Virus record (IMG/VR): IMGVR_UViG_3300020054_000866
Location: 1-64,000 of that record
Length of the DNA stretch: 64,000 bases
Origin: a virus
Strand: one strand, 5' to 3'
The notes under the pieces are model-generated. The model saw nothing but the letters and a program-made list of their open reading frames with translations. It ran no database searches and was not told where the DNA came from. Made by a program: the position numbers and the translations under genes. This document shows, piece after piece, positions 1,872-60,837 of the stretch (the first letter of the stretch is position 1; each line of letters begins with the position of its first letter).

Positions 1872-1883
1872 AAGAGATCACGA

Positions 1884-2093
1884 ATGCGACACGAACGCTC
1901 GCTGTACACAACCGTCTATGGTGCCGTGTATGACAGAATCAGCGACAAGTACCCAGCGGATAAGAAAGTTGTAGCTGCGAAAAAGATCACAGACACCCTG
2001 TGGGAGCTTTCATACGACTGCCACAGCACGCTTGAGTCTGTGTCAATTGAAGAAGACTTTTACACTATTGCTAGCGACGTGTTGAATCTTTAG
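1884..2093 (+). CDS. Hypothetical protein
   Basis: ORF continues the + strand run after a purine-rich RBS. Confidence 0.55.
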   Translation: MRHERSLYTTVYGAVYDRISDKYPADKKVVAAKKITDTLWELSYDCHSTLESVSIEEDFYTIASDVLNL

Positions 2094-2406: not shown

Positions 2407-2420
2407 TGTTTCTCCCCGAA

Positions 2421-2446
2421 AGTTGTCAGTTGTCAGTTGTCAGTTA
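2421..2446 (-). repeat. 7-bp tandem repeat (AACTGAC x3 on the - strand) giving TGA stops in all three frames
   Basis: agttgtc agttgtc agttgtc agtta, between the membrane-protein gene and the whiB RBS. Confidence 0.8.
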
Positions 2447-2679
2447 TTCTTTTTGTCGACCTTTTGGAAGACTTCGTTGATTTCCTCAGTCGTGAGAACG
2501 CCGTCGTCCATGTAGGCTCTTGCGAGTCCCTCAACAACAAACGCGACTCCACCAATTCCGGCCATAAGCACGGCCTTGACGAGAGGGACGTCAACAATAG
2601 CTCCTGCACCGACGACACTCAATCCTGTTGCTGCAAACGTTGCGACGATTCTGAAGCTGATTTGTTTCATCATTTCCAT
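2440..2679 (-). CDS. Small two-TM membrane protein (holin-like)
   Basis: Two hydrophobic helices followed by DDGVLTTEEINEVF and a charged tail. Confidence 0.6.
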   Translation of the reverse strand: MEMMKQISFRIVATFAATGLSVVGAGAIVDVPLVKAVLMAGIGGVAFVVEGLARAYMDDGVLTTEEINEVFQKVDKKNN

Positions 2680-2736
2680 GGAAGAGTCTCCCTGTTATAG
2701 CCCTCTCCCAAGGACATGATTATTCTAAACCATGTT

Positions 2737-9721: not shown

Positions 9722-10447
9722 GTGACTTCCATGAAAGATAAGGACCTCGCTTTACTATACGCTCGGGTCTCAACCAGCATCCAGGCGTCAGACGGTATCT
9801 CATTGGACGCGCAAGAGCGTGATCTTGTTCGAGCAGCGGAACTTGCCGGGTTCACACGATATGAGATCCTCCGCGAAGAGGGTCGCTCAGGCAAGTCGAT
9901 CTCCGGCCGGCCGGTTTTGAAAGAAGCTCTAGAGCGACTTGACGCTGGCACCGCCGGCGCACTCTTTGTCACTAGAATTGACAGACTTGCTCGATCAACA
10001 AAGGACTTTCTCAGCATAATCGACAGAGCCAGTAAATTTGACTGGAGAGTAGTTCTTCTCGACCTCAACCTTGACACGTCTACGTACCAGGGACGTTTTG
10101 TCGTCACGATAATGAGCGCGCTAGCAGAAATGGAACGCGCGATCATCGCCGAGCGCCAGAAGGACGTTCATCGTGATCGACGAGAGAAAGGTATCGTCTG
10201 GGGTGTTGACAAAGGTCCAAAGCGAATTATCTCAGATAGCACGCTTGAAACAATCGACCAACTTCGATCTACTGGCATGTCGTATCATAAGATTGCACAG
10301 AAGCTCAACACAGACGGTGTAGAAACTCCGTTTGAAAAGACCTGGCACGCATCATCTGTACGCCGAGCTTATCTTCTTGAAGAAAAAATATCGGGGCCGG
10401 GAGAGCTGCCCGTCAGCCAAGAGCAGCTCAATCCCGACCCCGAATGA
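9722..10447 (+). CDS. Small serine recombinase (resolvase/invertase family) with a short C-terminal recombinase-type DNA-binding segment
   Basis: YARVST catalytic Ser, SG...RP.L, RIDRLARS, LAEMER..I.ER and IAQKLN..G..TP....WH. Confidence 0.92.
   Translation: MTSMKDKDLALLYARVSTSIQASDGISLDAQERDLVRAAELAGFTRYEILREEGRSGKSISGRPVLKEALERLDAGTAGALFVTRIDRLARSTKDFLSIIDRASKFDWRVVLLDLNLDTSTYQGRFVVTIMSALAEMERAIIAERQKDVHRDRREKGIVWGVDKGPKRIISDSTLETIDQLRSTGMSYHKIAQKLNTDGVETPFEKTWHASSVRRAYLLEEKISGPGELPVSQEQLNPDPE
10383..10443 (-). terminator. Intrinsic terminator on the - strand overlapping the recombinase 3' end
   Basis: tcggggtcggga..gagctgc / gcagctc.tcccggccccga followed by tattttttc on the - strand. Confidence 0.7.
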
Positions 10448-10516
10448 CGTCGCTCTCTCCCAAAGCGTCGTCGATCTGTGTACAATTACATTGTACCATA
10501 ATCCTATTGGTAAATG

Positions 10517-13138
10517 TTATCTCGCGAATCTTGTAGCAACGGACCAATCAACCTCAGTCGAGGCGACCGTTCGTGGCATTAGCATCATTCCAAGAATCTC
10601 GGCTCTAGAACCGAAGCCGTTGATCTCGATCCCACGCTCTGACAACTTACGTTGAAACGCGATCTGAGTCATCGGCTTCTCGCCTCGTTCCTCACTCCAG
10701 ACTCGGTAAATTGCGTACAGCGACTTAATTGGCACTGAACCGCCTTCGGTCTCCTTAGTCTCTTCAAGGAGAAAGAATCCGATACGATCTTCGTTCTTGC
10801 GGTAGATGTCAGCAGCTTCTGTGACAGCCTTACACCAACCAAGAGAGTCTCTTGCGCTCGACCCAAGAAGTTTGATCGCGCCTTCAACAGCCCACGACAG
10901 CACAGCCGGCAGCGCGCCTTCTGGGTCGAAGATGTAGTGCTTCAAATCAGGGTCCGGGTTCTCAGGGACTTTTGTCAGAGGCACTGGTCTGATGCGTCTC
11001 CACATCGCGTCATCGGTGATGACTGGTCTGTGGTTTGTAGTGACCCAAAGCTTTGCACGCGACTGGAACGTGAATGGCTTTTCTCCAGGAGAGCGAGCCG
11101 AGATCTCAGAAGAACCGGTGAGCTTCTTGACTGAGTTTTCTTTCATTCTCTCAGTTTCAGGGAGCTCGTCAACCCAAACAAGACGACGACCGCGAAGCTC
11201 TGCCCAGTGATACAGATCTGATCCGTGCGCCTGTCCGTCACCCTGCGCAAGAATGCTCGAGTCAAGTGGCCACGCGTATTGTGACGTTCCCATCGCTTTC
11301 ACAAGCGCTTCGACAAGAGTGTTCTTACCAGAGCCTGGAGGTCCGTACACTAAGAACATGATGTCGTGAGTACGAAGACCTGTCAACGAGTATCCGGCAG
11401 CTTTTTGCAACCACTCTTGAAGTTCCTTGTCGCCGCCTGTAGCAAAGTCAAGGAATTGCTCCCAGCGAATATTCCGAATCCCCGGGTTGTACGCAACTGG
11501 CGCACGTCTCGTGATGTAGAGATCTGGTCGACCGCGAAGAAGCTCGCCCGTTCTCAGGTCGATGACACCGTTCGCTACTCCAAGAAGAGTTTCGTCACTG
11601 TCCCATGACTCGACTGGGATGAGAATTCTTGGGTCGGAGTTGGCGCTTTCAATCGCGCCGCTGATACGAGCGTTTGACTTTGCCTGTTGCGCCCAGCGAA
11701 TTACCTCAGACTGTTTGTCAGCATCGTCGAGGTAGTGCGTCACCTCGCTAGCGATGATCGGCGCAAGCTTCTTAGACAGCTCGCGCATCTCAAGATTTTC
11801 TGCGTCTGGCTTCCAGTATCCGCCGTCCCAGTGGAACCAGCCTAGTCCCGGAGTGTACCGAATAGCAGCACCAAACGAATCCACGAGACGTCGTCCATTG
11901 CCAGTATCTGAGAGGGTACGCTTTCCAGGCTCCCCGCCTTCCCCTGCCCCAAGCGCGTCAGGGTCTTGTGGTACGTCGATATTTGAGATGCTAGACGCGT
12001 CGGCAATCGAATCGCCGTCTTTAATGGCACTGTATACACTGCCAGAGATAGTGCCAGGTAGATGTACGTCATCAGCAGAGGGAGCACTCGAGCTTTTCTG
12101 CGTTGCCGATTCTTTCTTATCTCCAACGCTCGCACGACTCTCCTCCTGCGATTTATTTGCCCATTCCTGTAGACCCGGCCAAAGCTTTTCAGTCTTAGGG
12201 TTGTTGACAACAAAATCAATAGCGCGACGCACGTGCATAAGAAGTCCGCCGGAGCCCTCGAGCTCAAGTGGTGGCCGCACCTTCTCTGCGTTGAAACGAA
12301 TCATCATTGTTTCAACAGCCAAACGACCGGCTTCAGTATTTACTGGAAACTTGTTCGCAAGAGCGCACGCCATAGCGTAGATATCTACAGCGCGCGATCC
12401 TTCGTCGATACCTTCGTCAAGAAGGCGATCAACATCTACTCTCTCACCGGCAAACTCTAGCCCGTCAAGAAAACCCCACTCGCCCTCAGCAAGTGCTGTC
12501 TCCAATCTCTTCGACCTCTTGCGAAGAGATGCAAGTAGTTCTTCAGGCGCCTCTGCTATTTCAATTTCCCATGGAGCCTTGCCCGGCGCCCAGTCGTAGC
12601 ACACTCCAGAGAAGTGACGAGACGGTGCGATAAGCACATAGCCATTGTGCTTGATATCAATTCCACCAAGCCCAGACTTTTTTAGATTGCCAACAAGTCC
12701 TTCGGACTGATCGCACTTGTAGAAGAGATGTCGGCCACGAACTGAGCGCCCGTTCATAGAGTACTCGCCAGTGATCGCCTCTACCGTCGGAGGAAGCGCT
12801 CCATCGACCAGAGCTTCAAACTTCTCAAACGAGTCAGGTCCACCAGAGCGAGGGTCGATGTCGATAACAAAGAAACCGCTTGGCTTGCAAAAGACGCTGA
12901 CGTTATTCTGCGGTGACTTTGTCCACCACTCGTCTACTATGGAGACGTCGCTCGTCGCATGAAGATTCCACTCCGGAATGCTCGGATGCTTTCCGACGTC
13001 TTTTGGCTCAGGGTGTGTGCCGCCGCACGTGCATCGGCCGTTGTCAATGCCATAGCATGGCATGACGTGCCAACCCTGCGCGGCGTACCACGAGGCTGCC
13101 GGCCCAAGACGGCCCTCTGCGTCTGCCCACGTGCTCAC
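10517..13138 (-). CDS. Bifunctional primase-polymerase (Prim-Pol) fused to a D5/P4-type SF3 helicase
   Basis: GKHP, VIDIDPR, GRHLFY, D5_N-like DTGNGRRL, Walker A GPPGSGKNT, WVDE and TTNHRP. Confidence 0.93.
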   Translation of the reverse strand: MSTWADAEGRLGPAASWYAAQGWHVMPCYGIDNGRCTCGGTHPEPKDVGKHPSIPEWNLHATSDVSIVDEWWTKSPQNNVSVFCKPSGFFVIDIDPRSGGPDSFEKFEALVDGALPPTVEAITGEYSMNGRSVRGRHLFYKCDQSEGLVGNLKKSGLGGIDIKHNGYVLIAPSRHFSGVCYDWAPGKAPWEIEIAEAPEELLASLRKRSKRLETALAEGEWGFLDGLEFAGERVDVDRLLDEGIDEGSRAVDIYAMACALANKFPVNTEAGRLAVETMMIRFNAEKVRPPLELEGSGGLLMHVRRAIDFVVNNPKTEKLWPGLQEWANKSQEESRASVGDKKESATQKSSSAPSADDVHLPGTISGSVYSAIKDGDSIADASSISNIDVPQDPDALGAGEGGEPGKRTLSDTGNGRRLVDSFGAAIRYTPGLGWFHWDGGYWKPDAENLEMRELSKKLAPIIASEVTHYLDDADKQSEVIRWAQQAKSNARISGAIESANSDPRILIPVESWDSDETLLGVANGVIDLRTGELLRGRPDLYITRRAPVAYNPGIRNIRWEQFLDFATGGDKELQEWLQKAAGYSLTGLRTHDIMFLVYGPPGSGKNTLVEALVKAMGTSQYAWPLDSSILAQGDGQAHGSDLYHWAELRGRRLVWVDELPETERMKENSVKKLTGSSEISARSPGEKPFTFQSRAKLWVTTNHRPVITDDAMWRRIRPVPLTKVPENPDPDLKHYIFDPEGALPAVLSWAVEGAIKLLGSSARDSLGWCKAVTEAADIYRKNEDRIGFFLLEETKETEGGSVPIKSLYAIYRVWSEERGEKPMTQIAFQRKLSERGIEINGFGSRAEILGMMLMPRTVASTEVDWSVATRFAR

Positions 13139-13400
13139 TGCGGGCGTACGATTCTGTTTAGTGAGAGATCAAATGACTTACACATTCCCTGCGACGACAA
13201 GATGTTGTTAGAAGACTGACGGTCTTCGGTGGCTGACTGCTTGGACACTATACACATTTCTTCGACTCAAGACCTGACGAACTCAAAAAAGTGGGAATAC
13301 TTCTAACTATATCACAGTGTGTGCAGAGAGATTGTGATATTGTTCTGTACATCATTTAGTACATAGTGCTAAATAGTCAGCACCTTCAGCGAGGTAGTAC

Positions 13401-13649
13401 ATGGGAAAGCTTTTTGATGAGATACAGGAGTCTAACGTCGTGAAAGGAAGCAAGTCACGAATAGTAGAAATCCTAGATCATCTCGATAAGACAGACAGAA
13501 AAGATCTTATTGAGGCGCTAAATGATCATAGCATACCGGCATCAAACATTTCAAGAGCAATGGCAAAACGCGGGCACAAACTTGCTGTGCACGTCATTAC
13601 CCGCTATCGACGCGGAGAATTGGTGACAAAGATCGATGAGTCTCTCTGA
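13401..13649 (+). CDS. Small hypothetical protein, possibly HTH
   Basis: RBS gaggt; overlaps the phosphoesterase start. Confidence 0.65.
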   Translation: MGKLFDEIQESNVVKGSKSRIVEILDHLDKTDRKDLIEALNDHSIPASNISRAMAKRGHKLAVHVITRYRRGELVTKIDESL

Positions 13650-14652
13650 CGATATCAACGCCGAAGACGAAATTATCGAGCTTCGAAAAGCTCTGAAAAG
13701 AGCGCAGCAAGCCGAGTACAAGGCAAAGCGAAAGAGCGAAGAGATCGTCGAGGCCGTGTACAGAGCCGCGAAGGACTCTGCAACTGCTGTAGGCCGCGGG
13801 TCTAAGTACGCTGTAAGCGCGCCACCAAAGGATAGTAGAAAGTCTCGAGCAGAGGTTGCACTTGTGCACGCGACAGACTGGCAAAACGGTAAGAAGACAG
13901 TGAGCTACGGAATGGCGACGTGCGCTCAAAGAATGGAGCAGTTCGCAGAAAAGGTCCTCGAGCTCACGACTCTACAAAGAACTCATCACCCAGTGAAGGA
14001 ATGTGTTCTTATGTTTGGCGGCGACATGGTCGAAGGCATCACGATCTTCCCGGGCCAGGCCTGGGAGGTTGAAGCGCATCTTTTTGAGCAACTCTTCGAA
14101 ACAGTTGCAATTGAAGAATCATTAGTAAGAACTTTAGCGGGTTTCTTTGAGAAGGTTCACGTTGTCTGCGAATACGGAAACCACGGGCGTCTAGGCCGCC
14201 GCGGCGAGCTGCCGGCCGGCGACAATATTGACGCTATGACGTATCGGATCGCCCAAGACAGAACTAAGGATCTGAAAAATGTGACATGGCAGATGTCTGG
14301 TGACTGGTTTCAGATCGTCGAGATTGGTAACTATCGCGCGCTTCTAGTGCATGGCGACGAGATCAAATCATTCGGTGGCAATACACCAGCCTTCGGTATT
14401 CTGAGAAAGGCCAACGCGTGGGCAACTGGCGTCATCGACGAATTCCAAGATGTCTACATGGGCCACTGGCATACTCCAATGTCGTTGACAATGTCAAATG
14501 GTGGACGGGTATTCGTGTCAGGTTCACCAGAATCTCACAACGAGTACGCCAGAGAATTTGTCGCAGCAGTTGGAAAGCCGTCTCAGCGGCTTCATTTTGT
14601 TGACCCAGACAAGGCTAGGGTTACCGCAGAATACGTTGTGTGGCTTGATTGA
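13636..14652 (+). CDS. Calcineurin-like metallophosphoesterase / nuclease with an N-terminal coiled coil
   Basis: DWQ (DxH variant), GGDMVEG, GNHGR, HGD and GHWH motifs. Confidence 0.85.
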   Translation: MSLSDDINAEDEIIELRKALKRAQQAEYKAKRKSEEIVEAVYRAAKDSATAVGRGSKYAVSAPPKDSRKSRAEVALVHATDWQNGKKTVSYGMATCAQRMEQFAEKVLELTTLQRTHHPVKECVLMFGGDMVEGITIFPGQAWEVEAHLFEQLFETVAIEESLVRTLAGFFEKVHVVCEYGNHGRLGRRGELPAGDNIDAMTYRIAQDRTKDLKNVTWQMSGDWFQIVEIGNYRALLVHGDEIKSFGGNTPAFGILRKANAWATGVIDEFQDVYMGHWHTPMSLTMSNGGRVFVSGSPESHNEYAREFVAAVGKPSQRLHFVDPDKARVTAEYVVWLD

Positions 14653-14726
14653 TAAGCAGTTTTTCTTTCTCGCAGCTTGACGCCTTTGATAGGATATCTA
14701 AGGACACCTAGACCTGGAGAAACGAT

Positions 14727-46138: not shown

Positions 46139-47140
46139 ATGTTTATCGTCATCGAAGGCACTGACGCCTCGGGAAAGTCTACTCTTGTAGACGCTGTTGT
46201 CTCTGAACTCACCGGGCAGCGGTCAACTGCCGGCGCGATTCAGTACCACAAGGGCGCGCCGAAAGAGTTCACTCGCAAAGGCGTACTTTCAGAGTACGTA
46301 GAAGACATTCAAGACTTCAACTGGTTCTCAGCGACAGCAGTCGCTGATCGATGGCATTGGGGTGAGGTAACGTATGCTCCGATCAAGCGTCGTCATACTA
46401 ACATTGACGGCTTTGGTCTACTTGGCGTTGCTGGCTGGCGATGGACCGAGATGTTTCTTCGCGCTCGCGGCATTACTCAGTTTTGGCTGTATCAGCCGCT
46501 TGAGATTATTCAGCAAAGAATTAGAGAACGCGGAGACGACTTTGTAGAAGAGCATGAGCTCGAGCATATTTTAAGTCTCTACTCTTATGCGTTCGACAAC
46601 ACCATGTCGTGCATTAAGTTGCAGCCGTCAAACGGCGGATTAGATCAAGTAGCAAACCTGGCGCGTGACGTCATCAGCTACGCTAAGACATTGCAATCTG
46701 AAGTTCAGCATCTAGAAAGATTTACTTGGTACATCGGACCTCCAAAGCCAAAGGCGCTTCTCGTCGGTGACGAAAGAAACGACGAGACTGACACGATGTT
46801 GCCTTTCAAGCCTTCCGGTGCAAATTCAGCAGACTATTTGTTGAACGCCCTACCGTGCGAAACCTGGCGCGACTACGGAATCATAAATTCTGCCGATGTC
46901 TATGGAGAAGACATCATACGACTATATGAAGCTCTTAATCGGCCAAAAGTTATAGCCCTTGGTCGCATGGCAGAAAAGCGTCTTCGTCAATGCTCACTCT
47001 ACGAAAGTCTATACACAGTTCTTCCGCATCCTCAACATGTTAGACGATTTCACTACTCTGATCAAACAGAGTATGGTCGCGCAATTGATAGCTTCGCAAA
47101 CGGAAACACACAGGAGTATGCGTCATGGGTTCTTCGCTGA
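46139..47140 (+). CDS. Thymidylate-kinase-like dNMP kinase fused to a C-terminal uracil-DNA-glycosylase-fold domain
   Basis: FIVIEGTDASGKST P-loop, DRWH and RERGD; C-terminal LLVGD...PF...VIALGRMA...LPHPQ. Confidence 0.75.
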   Translation: MFIVIEGTDASGKSTLVDAVVSELTGQRSTAGAIQYHKGAPKEFTRKGVLSEYVEDIQDFNWFSATAVADRWHWGEVTYAPIKRRHTNIDGFGLLGVAGWRWTEMFLRARGITQFWLYQPLEIIQQRIRERGDDFVEEHELEHILSLYSYAFDNTMSCIKLQPSNGGLDQVANLARDVISYAKTLQSEVQHLERFTWYIGPPKPKALLVGDERNDETDTMLPFKPSGANSADYLLNALPCETWRDYGIINSADVYGEDIIRLYEALNRPKVIALGRMAEKRLRQCSLYESLYTVLPHPQHVRRFHYSDQTEYGRAIDSFANGNTQEYASWVLR

Positions 47141-47997
47141 CAGCAATTCACATCGAAGACGGAGTAAACGGCTACGTTGATCTTGTTCATCACGTGCTTG
47201 AGCACGGCCGCGAGGTGTCCCCACGCGGTGTGAAGACAAGAGAAATTGAAGACGCAACTGTATTCATAGACAACGTGTACGACGCAATGCCGATGGGCGT
47301 TGGTCGAGGTGTCGTCCCGGGCATTGGCGCCGTTGAGGCGTGCCAACTCGTCGCCGGTAGGAGCACGCCACGGACAGTGATTGCTATAGGTCCGCAGTTT
47401 ACGAATTACGCTGAGAACAACGGAGAATTTCACGGAGCGTACGGTCTACGTACAAATGGCCAGTACGCTCACGTTGTAGACAAAATCAAGAGTGACCCAG
47501 ACACGCGGCAAGCAGTCGTGACGATCTGGAACCCTGAGTTTGACAACATGCCACAGAAGCGTGACTACCCATGCACAGTTCTTCATCAGTTTAGAGTTCG
47601 TGACGGCAAACTAAATATGAGTGTCTACATGCGCTCAAACGACGTGTGGCTTGGTGCAGCGTACGACTTTTTCCAGTTCACGCGGGTGCAGTTAGCGATC
47701 TGCTCGATACTTGGAATAGAGCCAGGCACGTATGCGCATCACGTTGGGTCGCTTCACATCTACGAGTCAAATATAGATGCGGTGACTAAGTTGCGTAAGA
47801 CGAGCGCCCCTGTCGACCCAATTCCGTATTTTGCTGGCAACTCGTGGGCAGACGTCGCACTATCTGCGCAGAACTGTCTTCTCGCCGTTGACCCCGAAGC
47901 TTTGCACGTACCGGAGCTAAACGATACAGAGCTCTGGTACGTTAACGCAATGCGCTCCGCTATCGAGAGCAACGAGGCCAAACTCGGAAATGCCTAG
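47125..47997 (+). CDS. Thymidylate-synthase-fold enzyme, probable dCMP hydroxymethylase/methylase
   Basis: GAYG.R, DTRQAV, catalytic PC, RSNDVWLGAAYD (Asp where ThyA has Asn177) and GSLHIY. Confidence 0.8.
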   Translation: MGSSLTAIHIEDGVNGYVDLVHHVLEHGREVSPRGVKTREIEDATVFIDNVYDAMPMGVGRGVVPGIGAVEACQLVAGRSTPRTVIAIGPQFTNYAENNGEFHGAYGLRTNGQYAHVVDKIKSDPDTRQAVVTIWNPEFDNMPQKRDYPCTVLHQFRVRDGKLNMSVYMRSNDVWLGAAYDFFQFTRVQLAICSILGIEPGTYAHHVGSLHIYESNIDAVTKLRKTSAPVDPIPYFAGNSWADVALSAQNCLLAVDPEALHVPELNDTELWYVNAMRSAIESNEAKLGNA

Positions 47998-48202
47998 TGA
48001 TGAAAACGAAGAAGCTTTTGAGTATGCGTCTCCGATGCATGCCGCAGCGATTGGCATGCACGAGATGTACATCACGCTGAAGTCTGCCGGGTTTTCAAGA
48101 ACTGAAGCTCTCGAGTTGATAGCAAGAATGCTTTCATACGGAGTCACAGAGACTCTAATAATTGAGAGCGAGCTTGGTGACGATGACGACGACGACGACT
48201 AA
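47990..48202 (+). CDS. Small acidic hypothetical protein
   Basis: HEMY..L..AGFS..EAL.L pattern; poly-Asp tail. Confidence 0.6.
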   Translation: MPSDENEEAFEYASPMHAAAIGMHEMYITLKSAGFSRTEALELIARMLSYGVTETLIIESELGDDDDDDD

Positions 48203-48671
48203 CGCGCGGCCATCGTGGCAGTCGACATGGCTCACCGTTGCGACTGTTATTTCGCTGCGCTCACGGTGCTCAAGAGCGCAGATGGGCGCAGTTGTAGTGT
48301 CAAAAGACCAGCGTGTCTGCGCCACCGGCTATAACGGGCCGTCGGCGTCGTGGCCTGAAAGCGGCGACTGTATCGACTGGTGCCCAAGAGCGCGCGGCGA
48401 GTCACCACTAGACAACATCTATGACCAGTGCCCGTCAATTCACGCTGAAGCAAACGCGCTGCTGTACGTAGACAGATCAAGCGTTGAAGGCGGAACAATA
48501 TACATCACAAGTCCGCCGTGTATGCAGTGCGCAAAGCTAATTACAAATTCCGGGTTGTTGCACGTCGTATGTTATATTGGCGAGCACGACATGCACCGCA
48601 ATCCGTTGGATGTCGTCGAGTACATTAAAAAGTGTGGAATAAGCGTTACGCTTGTCGCGCACTCGGAGTGA
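48183..48671 (+). CDS. dCMP deaminase
   Basis: RSRC.R..GAV, TGYNG, HAEANA and PCMQC. Confidence 0.9.
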   Translation: MTTTTTNARPSWQSTWLTVATVISLRSRCSRAQMGAVVVSKDQRVCATGYNGPSASWPESGDCIDWCPRARGESPLDNIYDQCPSIHAEANALLYVDRSSVEGGTIYITSPPCMQCAKLITNSGLLHVVCYIGEHDMHRNPLDVVEYIKKCGISVTLVAHSE

Positions 48672-48677
48672 CGTATA

Positions 48678-50495
48678 GTGGCTGATCTTTCTCAAGTACA
48701 ACTTCACCTTGTCAACAGCGTAGAGTCTGCGAATGACTTTCTTTCGTGGCTTAGCGAACGACGGCCACACAACGCCATCGCGATCGACACGGAGACGGGC
48801 GAGATACCTGGAAACCCGAGGCAGCATGCGCTGTCACCGTGGCACGGACGTCTTCGGCTAGTTCAGGTCGGTGATGGCATGCAGGGCTGGTCAATACCGT
48901 GGGACGAATGGTCGGGAGTGTTCTACCAGGCGATGGAGCGCTTTGACGGTCCGATCGTCTGCCACAACATCGCGTTCGAGGCACGCTGGTTTGAGACTCA
49001 GTCACGCTGGAAAATGCCATGGCATCGCGCGCATGACACGATGATTATGGCTCACATTGTCGACCCGCTTGGTTCAGGCGCACTGAAGCGTCTTGCCGCG
49101 CTGCACGTCGACGCGCGTGCAGTTGCATTACAAGACACTCTTGATCAAGAGCTATCAGCCAACGGTTGGACCTGGGGAACTGTTCCCACAAACTTTGAGC
49201 CGTACTGGTCGTATGGCGCGCTCGACTGCGTTCTTACAATGCGTCTCTGGGAAATGTTCTACGAAAAGTGCGGACCTAACGGCGCGTACCACAAACCGTA
49301 TGAGCTCGAGATGGCGACTCGTAAGATCGTCACGAGAATGGAGATCAACGGCGCTCGAGTTGATCTTGACTACTCGCAGAGAAAGTACAACGAGCTTAGC
49401 TCATACACCGAGTCTGTAAAGAACTGGGCTAAGAATACGTACAACGGAACTTCTATAACGAGCAACATACAACTTGTTCGGCTGTTTGAGAGTCTTGGCG
49501 CTGAGATCACTGAGTTTACTCCGACCGGTCAGAAGTCTTGCACAAAGGATCAATTGAGGCTGCTAGCACAGAGCCCGATAGCGGAGGTCGCTAATCTCGC
49601 GGACACTGTTCTCAAGCAGCGTAAGGCCGACAAACTTGCTGGAACGTACTTTCTAAACTTTCTCACTGAGTCAATTGACGGCATTGTTCACCCGTCTGTG
49701 AAGACTCTTGGCGCTCGAACGAGCAGAATGTCGATCACAAATCCGGCGCTACAGACATTGCCGAAAGGCGATGACGTTGTTCGCCGAGCGTTCATCCCAA
49801 AAGACGATGACCACGTGATTATCACTTCTGACCTCGACCAGGTTGAGTTCAGAATGTTCGCGTCTCTATCTAAAGATCCAAATCTAATTACGCTGTTCAA
49901 CAGGGCGGACGCAACTGGCTCTGACCCGTTCACGGAGATTGGCAGAGAGATCTACAACGATCCGACGATGCAGAAGTCCGATAAGCGCCGCGCGCTGATT
50001 AAAGGCACGGTGTACGGAAGACTCTATGGCGCCGGTGTCGCGAAGCAAGCCGTAACTGCCGGCGTTCCTGAGCCACAGATGCGACAAGTTTCTGATGCAT
50101 TTGATCGCAGATTTCCGGGCATGTCGTACTTTCAAAAGCAGATCGAGGACGCCGGCATGCGAAGGTTGCAGAGCGAGGGCCAAGGCTACGTATATACGTG
50201 GACAGGAAGAAGACTGCCGTGCGACGAAGACAGAGTTTACACGCTTGTGAACTACCTCATTCAGGGTGGAGCGGCAGAGGTCTTCAAAGCAAATCTTGTC
50301 AAACTCGATCAAGCCGATTTGACTGAACTTCTCATCGTCCCGGTTCACGACGAAATAGTTCTACAGGCGCCACGAAAAGACGCAGACGAGATCAAGCAGA
50401 TAGTGAAGCAATGCATGACCACGTCTGACGGCTGGGATGTGCCACTGACCGCTGACGTAGACGGCCCGCTAGAGACGTGGGGCGACAAGTACTAG
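48678..50495 (+). CDS. polA: Family A DNA polymerase with a 3'-5' exonuclease domain
   Basis: Exo motifs DTET / HN..FE / YGALD; motif A DLDQVEFR, motif B R...KGTVYGRLYG and motif C VHDE. Confidence 0.93.
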   Translation: MADLSQVQLHLVNSVESANDFLSWLSERRPHNAIAIDTETGEIPGNPRQHALSPWHGRLRLVQVGDGMQGWSIPWDEWSGVFYQAMERFDGPIVCHNIAFEARWFETQSRWKMPWHRAHDTMIMAHIVDPLGSGALKRLAALHVDARAVALQDTLDQELSANGWTWGTVPTNFEPYWSYGALDCVLTMRLWEMFYEKCGPNGAYHKPYELEMATRKIVTRMEINGARVDLDYSQRKYNELSSYTESVKNWAKNTYNGTSITSNIQLVRLFESLGAEITEFTPTGQKSCTKDQLRLLAQSPIAEVANLADTVLKQRKADKLAGTYFLNFLTESIDGIVHPSVKTLGARTSRMSITNPALQTLPKGDDVVRRAFIPKDDDHVIITSDLDQVEFRMFASLSKDPNLITLFNRADATGSDPFTEIGREIYNDPTMQKSDKRRALIKGTVYGRLYGAGVAKQAVTAGVPEPQMRQVSDAFDRRFPGMSYFQKQIEDAGMRRLQSEGQGYVYTWTGRRLPCDEDRVYTLVNYLIQGGAAEVFKANLVKLDQADLTELLIVPVHDEIVLQAPRKDADEIKQIVKQCMTTSDGWDVPLTADVDGPLETWGDKY

Positions 50496-50812
50496 TGAAT
50501 AGGTACATGGAAAAAGCGATAGAGCTCGCTCACAGCAGCAAGTGCAGGCACAAGCACGGGTGCGTTGTAGTCAAAAACGGAAAGATCATTTCAAAAGCCA
50601 CAAACAAAAAAGTCGGAGACCCGTCCGTGGAGTTTCGTCTCGCGCTTCACGCGGAGTTTGCGGCTGTTGTAGCGGCAGGAACGCACGCCGCGGGTTCAAC
50701 AGTCTATGTAGCCAGAGTCCAAGCAGACGGCTCGACTGCGCTGTCTAAGCCTTGTAAGAAGTGTGAAAATATGATGAAAAGATCTGGAGTATCTAAGGTA
50801 GTGTGGACATGA
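50495..50812 (+). CDS. Second cytidine/dCMP-deaminase-family protein
   Basis: HGCVVVKNG.II, HAE and SKPCKKC. Confidence 0.8.
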   Translation: MNRYMEKAIELAHSSKCRHKHGCVVVKNGKIISKATNKKVGDPSVEFRLALHAEFAAVVAAGTHAAGSTVYVARVQADGSTALSKPCKKCENMMKRSGVSKVVWT

Positions 50813-55569: not shown

Positions 55570-56772
55570 ATGCGTATTCTAATGACAGGTTTTACCGCTC
55601 TGCAAATAAACACAGAGCGTAGAACGATCAAGAAGATCGACGTGCCAGCGTCTATTGCCGAAGCACTCGAGTCTCGAGGGCACTCTGTCGACTGGAGAAG
55701 AGTGACTCCCGGGGAAGATCTCTCATCATACGACGTCGCCTGGGTAAACCTTGCGCCGCTAAACTCGCTGAACGGTCGCCAGGGCGCGATGGGTGCGCTG
55801 TACACGCTCTCCTCTGGTCTGCCCGCCGTTGGATTCTTCGATGACTGGCAATTCGCCGCAGTGTTTAACGCGTCACGAGCGTTGAAGCGACATCCAGAGC
55901 TTCTGTATAAGTATCTATTGTCTGGGCCGAGAGGCGATGAGCCGGCGACGTACTACTCGTATGATGACGCGAAGGCAGCACTTGATCGCGTCGCGGCGAA
56001 GAACCCTGAGGACGCAGCGAAATGCGGTCTTGGGCGGTACTTCTTCAATGACACTGACGAGAACATCAAGCTTTACGAAAACCAACTTGTCGCTGCTGGA
56101 GAGTCTATGCTCGCTGAGCGCTGGGCAGCAGGCCTTGTTCCGGCGTGCCCAATGTACGCGTTTGGTGATAGGCAGCTCGTAAGAAAGCGAATGCCTAAGG
56201 AAATGAATGGCATAGAAGCGCTCGACCCGAGCTCGACTATCTATAACATCCTAGCGAGCAGCGAGCCGCTGCCACCGGAGAGCAAGCAGAGATCGTGGGT
56301 TCTCGGCGCGCTGATGCCGCACGATACGTGGCTAGAAAAGAAGAAGCCCGAGTGGCCGGTAGAAATCATCGGAAGCAGAAAGCTTATTAAGAAGTTCGGC
56401 GGGCAGCGTCTTGACACGGAAGAAGACGTTCTAGCGTTCTACAACAATCACTGGGGGATTCTGTCTCCGCCGTATCCACACGCTGGCAGCGGTTGGTGGA
56501 GAAGCAGATTTATGTACGCCGCTCGAGTTAGGTCTATTCTTGTAGTAGATAAAGGCGAAGGCGACCCTATCGGTGACGCGTACAAAATCACAATCAAACA
56601 AGTCGAGAGTATGAGCGACGCTGAGCTCGAGGAAACTGCCAGAGCGCAGGCCGAGTCTCTTCGCCCGTACATGCCAAGCTACGATTCTTTTGTAGATCAC
56701 TGCGAAAGAATTGTTCTTAGGGCGATCAACGAAGACAAAGGTTTGAAGATACACCCAGACGGAAGTAGATGA
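55570..56772 (+). CDS. Putative GT-B-fold (DNA) glycosyltransferase
   Basis: MRILMTGFT, L..RGHSVDW, FFDDWQ and GIL.PPYPHAGSGWWR.R; sits in the nucleotide-modification cluster. Confidence 0.6.
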   Translation: MRILMTGFTALQINTERRTIKKIDVPASIAEALESRGHSVDWRRVTPGEDLSSYDVAWVNLAPLNSLNGRQGAMGALYTLSSGLPAVGFFDDWQFAAVFNASRALKRHPELLYKYLLSGPRGDEPATYYSYDDAKAALDRVAAKNPEDAAKCGLGRYFFNDTDENIKLYENQLVAAGESMLAERWAAGLVPACPMYAFGDRQLVRKRMPKEMNGIEALDPSSTIYNILASSEPLPPESKQRSWVLGALMPHDTWLEKKKPEWPVEIIGSRKLIKKFGGQRLDTEEDVLAFYNNHWGILSPPYPHAGSGWWRSRFMYAARVRSILVVDKGEGDPIGDAYKITIKQVESMSDAELEETARAQAESLRPYMPSYDSFVDHCERIVLRAINEDKGLKIHPDGSR

Positions 56773-57794
56773 TGAAAAACATCGCGGTGACTGGGATGAC
56801 AGCATCTCAGTACTCAAGATCGCGCAATTCATCGTCACTAAGCTTTGTCGCCTGTCTAAGCGACGCTGCTACCATGTATGGAGACGACGTCCGTGTTTCG
56901 TGGATAAAGCCGTCTGTCTCTCACGCGCAAAGCGACTTTGAAGAATACGATGCGATACTTGTCGGTCTTTCTCCTCTTCTAAGTCTTGCTTCTCACTGCG
57001 CGTACGGCGTTCTTAATGTCGTCGGCATGCTAAAGGGCGATCAACGACTGCACTTCTATATTGACGCTCCTGACCCGGCAAAGATACGTCAAAGTCTGAG
57101 CGCGATTGTAAAGACGCCAGAGTCGTTGAAAAAGCCGATCTATAAGAATAGAAACGAGTACTCTAAAGTTTCTGGCTCAAGTGAGATTGTAGACAGGCTC
57201 GCTGAGTCTGCTGAGTATCTGTATTCAGACAAAAACTACAGAGTGCTGTACCCAGCGTTCTCGTTCACAGACGACGTTCACGTATCAAGAAAGTTGTTCG
57301 GGGAGGACTCGCTGAGAATGGTTCCGTTCAACTTCGATGCTCTATACACGAGGCAGGAAGTTGACGCAGTAATTTCAGCGGAGAAAAGCAAGCTATGGCT
57401 TGTAGAAAATCACAAGACGCGCTGGTTTGAGAGAATGAAAAATCTTCTTTCATATGACTGGGAACCGGTCAAAATTAAAAGAATGCAGCCGGACACCGTG
57501 TCACTAGACAGAATTTGCAGATCCACGGGAACAATCATATGCCCGCAAAACGACTCAATTACGTGGTGGACGTACAGATTAGTGCAATCTTTAGCAGCTC
57601 TAGTCCCGGTTTGTACAGAATGGCGAGATACAATCTCTATCGGGCAGTCATGGTCTGCCATACCGCAGGCCGTCGAGTCGATGAGCATAGCGGAGAGATA
57701 CTCTCTAGCATTAGAACAACTGGAGCAATACTCTCTATCTATTAGAGACGCAGAGACAGAGACATCTAGACTATTTAAGGAGCTTTCACTCTAA
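56769..57794 (+). CDS. Divergent paralogue of the preceding glycosyltransferase-like protein
   Basis: Collinear features: NIAVTGMTA.Q, YD.ILV.L.PL.SL...YG.L and TWW.YR; DDW is replaced by DAP. Confidence 0.5.
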   Translation: MMKNIAVTGMTASQYSRSRNSSSLSFVACLSDAATMYGDDVRVSWIKPSVSHAQSDFEEYDAILVGLSPLLSLASHCAYGVLNVVGMLKGDQRLHFYIDAPDPAKIRQSLSAIVKTPESLKKPIYKNRNEYSKVSGSSEIVDRLAESAEYLYSDKNYRVLYPAFSFTDDVHVSRKLFGEDSLRMVPFNFDALYTRQEVDAVISAEKSKLWLVENHKTRWFERMKNLLSYDWEPVKIKRMQPDTVSLDRICRSTGTIICPQNDSITWWTYRLVQSLAALVPVCTEWRDTISIGQSWSAIPQAVESMSIAERYSLALEQLEQYSLSIRDAETETSRLFKELSL

Positions 57795-58267
57795 TGAACA
57801 TTCTATTTAATCAGTGGCTTGAAAAGACAAAGAAGCTTCAATCAGAAGTCTACGGTGTAGATTACTCCGTGTTTCATAGCGACAGCCCAGAAGATCTTCG
57901 AGCGCTTATCGAGTACATCCGCTGGAACATGCTTGCTATTGATGACGAGCTCTCGGAGGTTCGCAAGGCGATTTCTTGGAAGCCTTGGCAGCACGACGAG
58001 CCGTACGCTGATCGCCGCGAGATTCTCAAGGAATGCGTAGACGTTCTTCATTTTGTCGCTAACATTCTCTGCGCCGCTGGTGCACTTGATGAAGATCTTG
58101 ATTCTGAGTACATCGCAAAGATGCAAATCAACGCGAATAGACAGAAGGCCGGGTACAGAGTTCTTGATGACGGCATGAAGTGCAAACTGTGCGCGCGTGC
58201 CTTAGACGACTACGACACCTCCTCGTGTAAGGAAGACGGGTGCCCGCAGCGTCATGGAGTCGTCTGA
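57794..58267 (+). CDS. MazG / dimeric dUTPase-like dNTP pyrophosphatase
   Basis: DELSE.....WKPW, E.VDVLHF and Y..K...N..RQ..GY; C-terminal Cys cluster. Confidence 0.85.
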   Translation: MNILFNQWLEKTKKLQSEVYGVDYSVFHSDSPEDLRALIEYIRWNMLAIDDELSEVRKAISWKPWQHDEPYADRREILKECVDVLHFVANILCAAGALDEDLDSEYIAKMQINANRQKAGYRVLDDGMKCKLCARALDDYDTSSCKEDGCPQRHGVV

Positions 58268-58499
58268 GTTCGCGTGGGTTGATGTTTCAGCCCAGACAAT
58301 CAAGCAAGGTGACGTACTGCGAGTAAAGCTCGATGCGTACACGACTTCTGCTGGAAAAATGCACAACGGGCGGCTAGTTCGAGTAAGAGAAGTAAAAGAC
58401 GGAGACGTAAGAGTACACACTATTGACTTAAAGACACCACATATCAACGACGCGAGGCACGCGCCTCATCGTCTTGAACGGAAGGTAAGCGTTTTATGA
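58254..58499 (+). CDS. Small hypothetical protein (SH3/KOW-like)
   Basis: IKQGDVLRVK.DAY.....HNGR..RV. Confidence 0.55.
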   Translation: MESSEFAWVDVSAQTIKQGDVLRVKLDAYTTSAGKMHNGRLVRVREVKDGDVRVHTIDLKTPHINDARHAPHRLERKVSVL

Positions 58500-58690
58500 G
58501 AGCAATAGTAAGATTTACAGCCGTCGGTAGTGACATCGAAGAGCTGCTATCAAAACTTAGAGAAGAATGGGCGTCGCTGTCAAATGGAAAAGACTTCCCA
58601 AGAGACAGCTCGATTGACATAGACAAGTTAGAAGAAACTGACGAAAAATACAGGGCCGTGTGCACCGCTCGAGTTAATATAGAAACCTGA
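58496..58690 (+). CDS. Hypothetical protein
   Basis: ATGA-coupled ORF within the operon. Confidence 0.55.
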   Translation: MRAIVRFTAVGSDIEELLSKLREEWASLSNGKDFPRDSSIDIDKLEETDEKYRAVCTARVNIET

Positions 58691-58695
58691 GGAAA

Positions 58696-59004
58696 ATGAC
58701 AAAAAAGATTGAAACCACGAGCGAGTCTCCAAGAGAGAAGATGCTTTCGGAGGCAGCAAAAATTATCTCTGGAGAGCGTGATCTTCAGTACGGCGGACCG
58801 GAAGACAATTTCCAAAGAATCGCGTCGCTATGGTCAGTCATTTTTGACAGAGACTTCAGCAAAGAAGATGTCGCAATGGCAATGATCGCAGTAAAACTCG
58901 CGCGATTTTCTTCCAACTACGGATTTCAACCAGACACCTGGACGGACATCGCGGGGTACGCGGCGTGCGGTTACGAGGTCGGGTTGATCGACTCAGGAGA
59001 GTGA
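58696..59004 (+). CDS. DUF6378-like (putative dNTP diphosphohydrolase) protein
   Basis: A..I+.G.R...YG...NF.RIA.LWS...VA..M...KLAR......D.W.DIAGYA. Confidence 0.8.
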   Translation: MTKKIETTSESPREKMLSEAAKIISGERDLQYGGPEDNFQRIASLWSVIFDRDFSKEDVAMAMIAVKLARFSSNYGFQPDTWTDIAGYAACGYEVGLIDSGE

Positions 59005-59005
59005 C

Positions 59006-60253
59006 ATGAGCACGAAAAAGTTTATCGACTGCAACGGCCTCGCTGGCTTCATGAGCCTTGGCTTTGTAAACTCCGGAATGGAGATGCTGGCAAGGACTGG
59101 GACGTTGAACTTCGGTAATCCAGTTGCAGAAGTGAATAGACATCATCTCGGCAACTCGTGGAACTCGTCATTCTCCGATGATCCGAGCGACTGGCCTGAT
59201 ATGGAAGCAGACATTGTTCTCGGCTGCCCGCCGTGCTCTGGATGGTCTCTATGGTCTGGCCCGGCAAACCGCGGGCCTGATGCTAAGGCTCACGAGCATA
59301 CTCGCGCGTTCATGAGATACGCAGCTCGCATCAAGCCGAAGATGATTGTCTTTGAATGTGTGCAGCAAGCGTACACTCAAGGACGACCAATGATGAATCA
59401 GTATCGTCAAATGGTAGAGGATCTCTCAGGCAAGCAGTACGATCTCTATCACGTCAAGCACAACAATCTCCAGGTCGGCGGATTCTCATATCGCATGCGG
59501 TACTTCTGGGTTGCTGTTGAAAAAGGCATGCCGTTTGGCGCTCACGCTGAGACGCCTAGCGAGATGCCTAGAATGATAGACGTAATTGGTGACCTCGAGC
59601 ACTGCGAGATCACGTGGGACCGACAGGCGTACTCCAACGACGGGTCGAAGTACGTTGCCGATCTCAGAAACCAAGACGGTACTGTTGACGGTCACATGAA
59701 CAAGACAAATCTCGAGTCGCAGAGAATTCAAGAAATCTTTGACATCATCGGCAACGATGGTTGGAAGCCGATGAAGCAGATGAACGAGGCTCTTAAGCTC
59801 GCCGTCGAGATGAACGGAGGGTACTTTCCACAGAGCTGGAGCAACAAAGAAGACAAGATTCGCGCCAATGACTTCTACATGGGGTTCTCACTCCCAGCAA
59901 GATGGGACGCTGAATCTTTCTGCCACGTGCTCACCGGTAGCGCGCTCGATCACGTCGTGCACCCAACGCAGCCGAGAAGAATCACTCACAGGGAGGCGGC
60001 AAGAATTCAAGGCCTTCCCGATGATTGGGAAATCGTCGCCGCGAAGGACTACACCCCGCAGAGCGCGACTTGGGGCAAGGCAGTGGCGGTGCAGGCGGCT
60101 AACTGGATCGGAGAGGCCTGCTCAGCGGCCTTAGACGGCCAGCCAAACGGTCCACAGGGTGAATTGATTGGTGATCGCGAATACCTTCTCGACACTGACA
60201 AGGGCTTTAGTAGAAACTTCGTCAAGAAGAACTTCTACCAGCGAGAAGACTAA
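59006..60253 (+). CDS. C5-cytosine DNA methyltransferase-like protein with atypical motifs
   Basis: PPCSGWS (motif IV), FECV (VI), YRMRYF (VIII), ITHREAARIQGLPD.W (IX) and WGKAV (X); motif I is CNGLAG. Confidence 0.8.
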   Translation: MSTKKFIDCNGLAGFMSLGFVNSGMEMLARTGTLNFGNPVAEVNRHHLGNSWNSSFSDDPSDWPDMEADIVLGCPPCSGWSLWSGPANRGPDAKAHEHTRAFMRYAARIKPKMIVFECVQQAYTQGRPMMNQYRQMVEDLSGKQYDLYHVKHNNLQVGGFSYRMRYFWVAVEKGMPFGAHAETPSEMPRMIDVIGDLEHCEITWDRQAYSNDGSKYVADLRNQDGTVDGHMNKTNLESQRIQEIFDIIGNDGWKPMKQMNEALKLAVEMNGGYFPQSWSNKEDKIRANDFYMGFSLPARWDAESFCHVLTGSALDHVVHPTQPRRITHREAARIQGLPDDWEIVAAKDYTPQSATWGKAVAVQAANWIGEACSAALDGQPNGPQGELIGDREYLLDTDKGFSRNFVKKNFYQRED

Positions 60254-60324: not shown

Positions 60325-60837
60325 ATGCAATCATTTCTAGTCTCGACTGACTCGTTTGAGACAACAGCAAAAGTACTAGACAACAAGCGCCTGCATAAGC
60401 AGACTCTTGAGGCATGGCAGTGCTTGCTAACAATCTCTGGCCTAGACCCAGAGGGCAACGACCGAAACCCTAAGGGCTGGGTGAATCACCCAGTTGTAAA
60501 AATGTGGCGCGGCTACGAGACAGTGTTTGTCTCATACATCTCGGCTACGTACTTCGAGTGGCGATCGCGCGGGTACAAATCAACTCTTCTTGAGAAAACG
60601 TACAGAACGTACGATCTAGCAGTCTCACTAGGCCGTGTCTCTTCCGAGTATCGACTCCCACCATGGATGCAAGACTCTACGTACTTTAGCAGCCTATGTT
60701 CTACTCATCGGACCGCACTCCTGTGCAAGAACTACGAGTGGTACCATCAGTTCGGCTGGCCAGAGGACTCGGGGACTGCACCAGAGACGTACGAGTACTT
60801 GTGGCCTCATCAAGACGGCTACGTCATCGCCGGCTAA
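60325..60837 (+). CDS. MSMEG_6728-family / pyrimidine-dimer DNA glycosylase (DenV-like)
   Basis: MQ.FL......TA.VLD.KRL.KQ.LEA.Q, W.NHP.VKMW.G and H+..L..K...Y......Y.WP. Confidence 0.85.
   Translation: MQSFLVSTDSFETTAKVLDNKRLHKQTLEAWQCLLTISGLDPEGNDRNPKGWVNHPVVKMWRGYETVFVSYISATYFEWRSRGYKSTLLEKTYRTYDLAVSLGRVSSEYRLPPWMQDSTYFSSLCSTHRTALLCKNYEWYHQFGWPEDSGTAPETYEYLWPHQDGYVIAG

Follow-up and report, generated by a model that had tools for sequence, protein, structure and literature searches.

A phage protein with the cytosine C5-methyltransferase fold and a remodelled cofactor pocket, associated with 5-hydroxymethylcytosine synthesis, as a candidate for cytosine modification without AdoMet

The stretch of viral DNA analysed here (the window; 64,000 nucleotides, positions 1 to 64,000 of the 109.8-kb IMG/VR record IMGVR_UViG_3300020054_000866) encodes at 59006-60253 (+) a protein, MTL (P0001), with the fold of the cytosine C5-methyltransferases (C5-MTases) and a remodelled cofactor pocket. 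According to the alignments, MTL retains the residues with which such enzymes attack a flipped cytosine covalently (Cys77, Glu117 and Arg163/Arg165), and the residues that hold S-adenosylmethionine (AdoMet) in canonical enzymes are conservedly replaced in its family. MTL probably performs DNA-cytosine chemistry other than ordinary methylation. The reading favoured here, to which a probability of about 0.35 is assigned, is that MTL would be a DNA-level, non-AdoMet C5 enzyme that writes a hydroxymethyl handle after replication on cytosines that escaped replacement.

To our knowledge, all natural DNA enzymes of the C5-MTase fold transfer their group from AdoMet or carboxy-SAM, and we know the AdoMet-free reactions of this fold, namely aldehyde addition, removal or derivatisation of 5-hydroxymethylcytosine (5hmC) and deamination, as side reactions in the test tube only. 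Since the MTL clade is large, conserved and confined to phages, has a rebuilt cofactor pocket next to a retained covalent machinery and is locked to 5hmC biosynthesis, it is a candidate for a natural version of such an AdoMet-free reaction and hence for a new pathway by which cytosine in DNA becomes modified. That the family represents a new kind of DNA-modifying reaction is conceivable, albeit doubtful. If true, the enzyme could serve sequence-independent or 5hmC-specific labelling of DNA, and it would add a missing step to the picture of restriction evasion in actinophages. The MTL gene is present in cultured phages of Gordonia and in Micrococcus phage Kurnik, which makes the question directly testable.

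Fold and motifs of MTL

The open reading frame (ORF) of MTL starts with ATG, ends with TAA and encodes 415 amino acids (aa). An AGGAG-type ribosome-binding site is located 5 nt upstream of the ATG, and one base separates the start codon from the stop codon of the preceding gene (59002-59004). The AlphaFold 2 (AF2) model has a predicted local distance difference test score (pLDDT) of 95.8 and a predicted template modelling score (pTM) of 0.94, and describes a full-length C5-MTase-fold protein. Structural alignment with VIA-align over residues 1-380 yielded Z scores of 30.3 for DNMT1, 29.4 for the prophage methyltransferase 3g7u, 29.1 for M.HaeIII, 26.4 for M.HhaI and 24.0 for SpCmoX. With canonical C5-MTases of family PF00145 (HaeIII, HhaI, DNMT1), MTL shares the fold over residues 1-380 (Z 26-30, root-mean-square deviation 2.6-3.4 A), the order of the motifs, the Cys of PPC, the Glu of motif VI, the RxR of motif VIII, a motif IX of the form RE...G.PD and a DNMT1-like target recognition domain (TRD). 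The PF00145 match itself (8e-23, profile positions 54-322) starts only at residue 59, so that the part containing motifs I to III is not recognised.

The motifs were first noticed in an original prediction made from the DNA letters, and all strings quoted there are present in the translation: FIDCNGLAGF (residues 6-15), LARTGTLNFG (28-37), GCPPCSGWS (73-81), VFECVQQ (115-121), YRMRYFW (162-168) and TWGKAVAV (355-362). Residue equivalences were set by an end-to-end alignment of a 50-member profile of the MTL family with M.HaeIII, which agrees with the motif assignments of that prediction. In motif I (residues 8-15, 59027-59050, +), DCNGLAGF replaces DLFxGxGG; the F-S-G-A-G-G of HaeIII corresponds to Q-G-F-A-G-G in the family and to N-G-L-A-G-F in MTL, with N10 aligned on the motif I Phe and L12 on the first motif I Gly. 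Motif IV (P75-P76-C77-S78, 59228-59239, +) retains the catalytic Cys and has Ser in place of the usual Gln, and motif VI (E117-C118-V119, 59354-59362, +) corresponds to the canonical E-N-V, for which the family as a whole has E-S-V. Motif VIII (R163-M-R165, 59492-59500, +) is retained, and motif X (G357-K358-A-V, 60074-60085, +), aligned to the GNAV of HaeIII and MET1, reads G-K-x-V in the family instead of G-N-A/S-V. The acidic residue after strand 2, which had been reported as lacking, is indeed absent in MTL, where T31 occupies the position of the motif II Glu of HaeIII. D58-D59 after strand 3 could still serve as the motif III Asp. Three residues of HhaI that line the transferred group, Q82, N120 and N304, thus correspond to Ser, Ser/Cys and Lys in the MTL family. 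MTL therefore departs from three features that define AdoMet-dependent C5-MTases, namely motif I, the motif II acid (in its subclade) and the ENV/GN pair, and we infer from these replacements that its AdoMet site is occluded.

Conservation and distribution of the family

An exhaustive search identified 946 cluster representatives at E<1e-3 and at least 138 clusters (50% identity) at E<1e-30, well above what chance would give. Conservation was assessed in a family alignment of 122 full-length representatives, about 27-57% identical to MTL, and in a close set comprising the 120 nearest clusters with 62-100% identity. The catalytic residues are almost invariant among the representatives (Cys77 in 119/122, Glu117 in 121/122, Arg163 in 119/122 and Arg165 in 122/122). 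The motif I Phe is retained in none of the 122, with Gln (61), His (16) and Asn (10) at its position, and 111 have Phe or Leu where motif I has its first Gly; the A-G-G end of motif I is still present in the family. The motif IV Gln position is occupied by Ser in 106 of the 122, the motif VI Asn position by Ser in 114 and Cys in 5, and the position of K358 by Lys in 116 and Arg in 3. F36-G37, W63 and H149 are new, near-invariant residues, and the new aromatic residues fall at the positions of motifs I, II and III. In the close clusters, GCPPCSGWS is found in 120/120, FECVQ in 115/120 and DCNGLA(G/A)F in 112/120, and RTGTLNFG and GKAV occur in every row listed. The family is not uniform at two positions: a Glu in strand 2 is present in about 60% of the representatives and replaced by Ser, Thr, Gly or Ala in the others, with Thr in the subclade of MTL, and most of the family has G-N-PPC where MTL has GCPPC. 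All family members have an alignable TRD with conserved residues of its own. Restriction-modification methyltransferases of different specificity are not known to share such an alignable TRD.

Among 185,579 prokaryotic species genomes, one each, a scan keyed to GNPPCSGFS, and therefore covering the commonest motif variant only, found a single locus, which is situated on a contig of a metagenome-assembled genome. Of 50,697 phage records, 15 carry MTL, and the same 15 were obtained with three different family queries. They represent 10 phages, namely Actinomycetia phage DSL-LC01, eight GMA2-like Gordonia phages, including GMA2, Sixama and Phendrix, and Micrococcus phage Kurnik; the family signature is visible in the homologues of DSL-LC01, GMA2 and Kurnik. 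In IMG/VR, several hundred MTL loci were found. Decay of the pocket had been named as an outcome that would overturn the original prediction; judging from the alignments, however, the changes are conserved under selection in both close and distant relatives and mark a deep family that is essentially confined to viruses. The searchable literature contained no description of it, and the literature on modifications in GMA2-like phages and Kurnik or on combinations of MazG, ThyA and methyltransferases yielded nothing relevant.

One explanation is that MTL is an ordinary AdoMet-dependent 5-methylcytosine (5mC) methyltransferase with a divergent but working pocket, serving as a back-up for residual cytosine or in anti-restriction. 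The intact fold and catalytic motifs fit this explanation, as does the label of methyltransferase that databases give to MTL. In addition, an AdoMet site could be rebuilt by the A-G-G, D58-D59, the Glu of most relatives and the Phe or Leu that stands two residues behind the missing motif I Phe, and DNMT3 enzymes, which have an Arg in motif X, use AdoMet. Nevertheless, this explanation is considered unlikely, because a bulky residue replaces the first motif I Gly in nearly all representatives, the motif I Phe has been lost in every one of them, and the first 58 residues of MTL escape the Pfam match. Moreover, three pocket-lining residues have changed jointly, along with the new invariant aromatic residues at motifs I to III.

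Three unusual homologues were observed in passing. One family member (P0228) contains a LAGLIDADG intein exactly at the catalytic Cys (GTPP/C...HN/CSGFS), so that the +1 nucleophile of the extein is the active-site Cys. In two loci, the homologue is either split over two ORFs (L134, 9968-11262) or lacks a recognisable PPC motif (L139, 10001-11299); both may be broken or further diverged.

Coupling to 5-hydroxymethylcytosine synthesis

The window encodes a ThyA-fold enzyme at 47125-47997 (+; PF00303, 4e-27) with Asp at the position of E. coli N177, a retained D169 and Asp at the position of L143. Asp at N177, Asp or Glu at L143 and a retained D169 are the signature of T4-like 5-hydroxymethyl-dCMP (5hmdCMP) synthases, from which 5-hydroxy-dCMP synthases differ by D169N (PMC13326640). 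Among 18 long IMG/VR records that contain distant members of the MTL family, a ThyA homologue was found in 16, and in 11 of 11 among those that are at least 90% complete. All 16, and one further record of the amino-acid:DNA transferase/kinase type described below, have Asp at N177, D169 and Asp at L143. In the phage collection, the best tblastn matches of the ThyA homologue are the same phages that carry MTL. The signature was read directly in the window, DSL-LC01 and GMA2; in Kurnik, the two positions checked have Asp at N177 and a retained D169, and in the remaining seven cultured phages the ThyA homologue was found by tblastn. The co-occurrence with an Asp-type ThyA gene, which had been proposed as a check, was thus found in every sufficiently complete genome examined. 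Together with the conserved pocket substitutions, this rules out random decay and ties MTL to 5hmC DNA.

A second constant partner is an all-alpha NTP pyrophosphatase of the MazG/dUTPase_2 type, a candidate dCTPase, which is encoded in the window at 57794-58267 (+; PF08761, 2.6e-11; phrog_18650, dUTPase). Of 38 diverse loci, 35 have a MazG homologue at a distance of up to 10 kb from MTL, in 27 of the 38 directly upstream of it, and in most distant relatives the MazG gene abuts the MTL gene directly. The loci share the synteny of a replication module with the order PolA-RuvC-SNF2-PDDEXK-AAA_24-DUF669-[variable slot]-MazG-MTL. On the basis of gene content, MTL appears to be a constant core member of an actinophage 5hmC module consisting of Asp-type ThyA, deoxynucleoside monophosphate (dNMP) kinase, dCMP deaminase and MazG-type pyrophosphatase. 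This confinement also bears on ordinary methylation: anti-restriction methyltransferases are scattered among phages, whereas MTL occurs only in phages that have an Asp-type ThyA, where C5 should be largely occupied. A complex prediction for MTL and the MazG protein (alignments A1 and A3) gave an ipSAE of 0.00 in both runs, which is uninformative either way.

Candidate counterparts of each component of the T4 5hmC system (gp42 dCMP hydroxymethylase, gp1 kinase, gp56 dCTPase and the alpha- and beta-glucosyltransferases) are present in the window, namely the Asp-type ThyA, a dNMP-kinase-like protein, the all-alpha pyrophosphatase, a dCMP deaminase and GT-B-like proteins, and a fold like that of T4 beta-glucosyltransferase occurs in related loci. 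In contrast to this module, in which MTL is constant, T4 has no component of the C5-MTase fold. Another known arrangement consists of phage clusters of methyltransferase, TET/5mYOX and glycosyltransferase, in which 5mC is made and then oxidised to 5hmC by a TET-like dioxygenase (PMC8256090; bioRxiv 10.1101/2023.12.21.572611). Such clusters resemble the MTL locus in having a C5-MTase fold beside DNA glycosyltransferases and in the setting of post-replicative cytosine hypermodification. They differ in that no Tet_JBP match at E<=1 was obtained in the 109.8-kb record (82% complete), which encodes a nucleotide-level hydroxymethylase instead.

In the same record, neither CmoA (TIGR00740) at E<=1 nor the helical domain of 5-hydroxymethyl-dU DNA kinase (HMUDK), DHFR or a second PF00145 gene was found. 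Since the record is incomplete, the absence of CmoA, TET, HMUDK, DHFR and a second C5-MTase is not proven. Without matches to TET, CmoA, HMUDK or a second PF00145 protein, no other route to a DNA-level handle was seen in it. All 20 sequencing runs in which this phage occurs are represented by assembled contigs of short-read metagenomes, which do not reveal base modification.

Variable tailoring genes and fusions

In contrast to the constant core, the slot preceding MazG varies. In 20 of 38 loci it holds a 457-aa protein whose AF2 model (pLDDT 85.6) has T4 beta-glucosyltransferase as all six of its best PDB matches (E 1.7e-9 to 9e-8), often with an NDP-sugar epimerase alongside. In six loci, the slot holds an amino-acid:DNA transferase (PF18724, above cut-off) and/or a protein with a weak HMUDK-like match, and one record of this type also carries an Asp-type ThyA. 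PF18724 proteins with a weak 5-hmdU-DNA-kinase-like protein were noted in phages with Asp-type ThyA (L118, L125, L128, L131 at 1630-4022, L135 and L137; also L182). This combination hints that the known route of thymidine hypermodification has a counterpart for cytosine. As MTL forms with and without the strand 2 Glu are each found with both kinds of tailoring, MTL is assigned to the constant core, outside the tailoring set.

MTL is also fused to putative tailoring domains. In a 919-aa protein (P0259), it is joined to an HMUDK helical domain (5e-40); a scan of viral contigs found no locus for this protein. An FkbM-family SAM methyltransferase domain is present on five MTL representatives (above the curated cut-off) and a UbiG-like domain on three; these fusions sit in separate clades of the family tree, and none of the fused domains is CmoA-like. 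One full fusion of MTL with a UbiG-like domain is located straight after ThyA and a deaminase. If the MTL domain itself bound AdoMet, it would be strange for it to have been joined repeatedly to another, canonical SAM-fold domain, which is a further argument against ordinary methylation by MTL.

The UbiG-like domain also occurs as a stand-alone class I SAM methyltransferase, to which the C-terminal domain of the P0211 fusion is homologous. Of 18 other, unrelated viral loci with this protein, 14 have it next to a ThyA homologue, with the Asp read in 12, and usually include a dNMP kinase and/or a dCMP deaminase (L086-L103, e.g. L087 at 9992-14659, L092, L094, L095, L097 and L102). The stand-alone protein may represent a further, undescribed step of 5hmC tailoring. 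Methyltransferases of the FkbM and UbiG types are classically O-methyltransferases. Since a hydroxyl could be the target of kinases, FkbM/UbiG-type methyltransferases and glycosyltransferases alike, their common denominator would be a hydroxylated C5 substituent.

With a hydroxylated substituent as the common denominator, MTL could either make it or consume it. In the latter case, one of the two options of the original prediction, MTL would act on 5hmC or on O-activated 5hmC in phage DNA, leading to a derivative or, by site-specific erasure, to cytosine and formaldehyde. Cys77 would add to C6, and Lys358 would aid the departure of the C5-CH2-O group or its deprotonation, giving an exocyclic methylene intermediate that would capture a nucleophile or release formaldehyde. 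The strict co-occurrence with a 5hmdCMP-synthase-type ThyA would be explained, as would the enlarged, polar and cationic lining (Ser78, Cys118 and Lys358) where the C5 substituent would lie; a fused hydroxymethyl-base DNA kinase would provide a phosphate leaving group for the Lys to bind, and, in the absence of AdoMet, C5-MTases carry out such reactions with 5hmC in vitro. However, the same pocket occurs with glycosyl, phosphoryl/aminoacyl and methyltransferase tailoring, and no single O-activated substrate suits all of them. O-methylation by the putative FkbM/UbiG-like domains would give a poor leaving group, loci of the kinase type already have the amino-acid:DNA transferase for the substitution step, MTL would compete with glycosyltransferases for the same hydroxyl, and an HMUDK-type kinase was not found in the 109.8-kb record. 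Consumption of 5hmC is therefore regarded as quite improbable, and the kinase and FkbM/UbiG-like fusion partners seem to fit an enzyme that makes the handle somewhat better than one that consumes it.

Comparison with carboxy-SAM-dependent enzymes

SpCmoX of Synechococcus phage S-B43 (PDB 8YF3) is a carboxy-SAM-dependent DNA cytosine C5-carboxymethyltransferase in which R350 contacts the carboxymethyl group; CmoX enzymes are defined by an SPPC motif and an Arg at the position of HhaI N304, and keep Phe25, Glu47, Phe48 and Asp69 for adenosine (PMC12783734). Like MTL, SpCmoX is a phage protein of the C5-MTase fold with a basic residue in place of the motif X Asn, facing the transferred group. A hypermodification pathway begins with the reaction of SpCmoX, whose gene is accompanied by those of CmoA and an amide ligase.

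This similarity raises the possibility that MTL transfers an alkyl group from a modified form of AdoMet, for instance carboxy-SAM, or a different part of AdoMet itself, with Lys358 binding an anionic group on the transferred moiety. A SAM analogue was the other option of the original prediction. The basic residue corresponding to R350 of SpCmoX, the smaller Ser and Cys in place of the motif IV Gln and motif VI Asn, which would leave space for a larger group, the strand 2 Glu in about 60% of the family and the clear structural relationship to SpCmoX (Z 24.0) are consistent with it. Engineered C5-MTases provide a parallel: M.MpeI N374K reportedly uses carboxy-SAM, and M.HhaI Q82A/N304A bulky SAM analogues. 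The motif X change from Asn to Lys in MTL is identical to this engineered carboxy-SAM switch, and the positions mutated to enlarge the pocket for bulky cofactors are Q82 and N304 of HhaI, whose equivalents are changed in MTL. Engineered C5-MTases, however, retain an intact adenosine site for AdoMet, whereas in the MTL family the changes extend to motifs I-III and to the Asn of motif VI.

MTL also differs from CmoX itself. It has Lys358 and GCPPC (G(C/N)PPC in the family) instead of Arg and SPPC, and Asn and Thr in place of the CmoX Phe and Glu, so that its adenosine-binding residues are changed. No CmoA was found in the 109.8-kb record, and the partners of MTL are genes of the 5hmC pathway. 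By its motifs and gene context, MTL thus appears to fall outside the published definition of CmoX, with its SPPC motif, Arg and accompanying CmoA. The use of a SAM analogue would also leave the strict link to a 5hmC synthesis that removes cytosine unexplained. Therefore, a modified AdoMet as the cofactor of MTL is considered rather improbable.

Proposed reaction

According to the favoured reading, in which MTL makes the hydroxymethyl handle, it would act on replicated phage DNA and not on nucleotides, and its reaction would not be ordinary methyl transfer from AdoMet. Cys77 would add to C6 of a cytosine missed by the nucleotide-level replacement, and the C5 carbanion would attack a non-AdoMet one-carbon electrophile, either 5,10-methylene-tetrahydrofolate or formaldehyde. 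Lys358, together with Ser78 and Cys118, would accommodate and protonate the new oxygen, and elimination of Cys77 would yield 5hmC, which a neighbouring or fused glycosyltransferase, kinase or methyltransferase-like domain would then decorate. The new aromatic residues at motifs I to III might form another ligand site or merely fill the adenine pocket. The MazG-type dCTPase and MTL would be the nucleotide-level and DNA-level halves of a system that excludes unmodified cytosine from the virion genome.

This reading is favoured because it is the only one that makes each fusion a pair of consecutive steps. It also explains a constant MTL beside varying tailoring, pairs with the dCTPase-like neighbour and gives Lys358, Ser78 and Cys118 a role as acid and as room for the oxygen. 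Methylene-tetrahydrofolate is the donor already used by the ThyA homologue of the phage, and C5-MTases without AdoMet reportedly add formaldehyde to cytosine in vitro to give 5hmC (Liutkeviciute et al. 2009). Whether the family comprises the first natural DNA-level cytosine 5-hydroxymethylase on a C5-MTase fold, working without AdoMet or a TET dioxygenase, writing 5hmC or a related oxygenated one-carbon group directly on DNA, with methylene-tetrahydrofolate or an aldehyde as donor and the motif X Lys as acid for the new oxygen, is a more tentative matter, and this specific form is considered slightly less probable than the favoured reading as such.

Several points weigh against a DNA-level hydroxymethylase. 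It looks redundant beside a complete nucleotide-level pathway, and a mere back-up role fits uneasily with a conservation this deep. We know of no enzyme of the class I methyltransferase fold that uses folate, and cells contain little free formaldehyde. The retained A-G-G and the Glu of strand 2, usually a ligand of the ribose and kept in about 60% of the family, point to a nucleoside-containing cofactor in most members. Furthermore, DNMT3-type enzymes have an Arg after the motif X Gly and yet methylate with AdoMet, so that a basic residue at this position is not diagnostic alone. Finally, since the MTL loci share their synteny, the co-occurrence counts reflect a deep association and are not independent.

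Neighbouring genes in the window

Upstream of MTL, the genes encode, in order, a dNMP-kinase-like protein, the ThyA-fold enzyme, two dCMP-deaminase-like proteins, PolA, an SNF2 helicase, a PD-(D/E)XK nuclease, AAA_24, DUF669, two Pfam-less paralogues (55570-57794), the MazG/dUTPase_2 pyrophosphatase and a DUF6378 protein; an endonuclease V-like glycosylase and WhiB follow MTL. The first of these (46139-47140, +) is a P-loop protein similar to dNMP (thymidylate) kinases with a C-terminal extension; its orthologue in DSL-LC01 is annotated as a thymidylate kinase, and homologues adjoin the Asp-type ThyA in other loci. Its C-terminal ~150 aa have no Pfam match, and motifs resembling those of the uracil-DNA glycosylase (UDG) family were read in them by eye (GDERNDE...LPF...HPQH); if real, the product would be a kinase-UDG fusion.

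The gene immediately 3' of MTL (60325-60837, +; PF03013, 6.7e-15) encodes a pyrimidine-dimer glycosylase similar to T4 endonuclease V. A homologue is found at the same place in DSL-LC01, and another about 2 kb downstream in a further locus (L141). This Pyr_excise neighbour is one reason to consider that MTL might be an AdoMet-free, covalent cytosine deaminase or trap directed at unmodified DNA, either host DNA or faulty phage DNA. Cys77 would add to C6 and Lys358 would protonate C5, the resulting dihydrocytosine would be converted to uracil, and the UDG-like domain and the endonuclease V-like glycosylase/lyase would cut the DNA. AdoMet-starved C5-MTases deaminate cytosine to uracil, and 5hmC DNA would be immune, mirroring the cytosine-specific nucleases of T4. 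On the other hand, the fusions to enzymes that tailor phage DNA argue for phage DNA as the target, the glycosylase is a neighbour in few lineages only, and the UDG-like part of the kinase is a by-eye reading. A deaminase function is accordingly thought to be very improbable.

Of the two deaminase-fold genes, which are separate and flank PolA, the first (48162-48671, +; PF00383, 2.6e-17) is dCMP deaminase-like and adjoins ThyA in many related loci, and the second (50477-50812, +) encodes 111 aa. For the two Pfam-less paralogues, Atlas neighbours provide leads only: those of paralogue a (55570-56772, +) by feature include a glycosyltransferase cluster, those of the GT-B-like paralogue b (56769-57794, +; no Pfam match) by structure are GT-B/GT4 proteins, and 40% of the members of one feature neighbour of paralogue b are T4-Gluco-transf proteins. 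ORFs of other loci match both paralogues alike in phmmer searches. A class I SAM methyltransferase beside MTL in DSL-LC01 was rejected as a general partner, as it has a homologue in one other locus only, and two clusters of antisense ORFs (c18 and c22) were dismissed as artefacts. The gene immediately 5' of MTL encodes a DUF6378 protein (58696-59004, +; PF19905, 1.4e-26) and is translationally coupled to it. Between the MazG and DUF6378 genes lie two small ORFs of 81 and 64 aa (58254-58690, +) that match no family. Many homologues of the MazG protein (alignment A3) terminate in a conserved KCPxCxRALDD...C, possibly a small zinc-binding tail, which would be unusual for this family.

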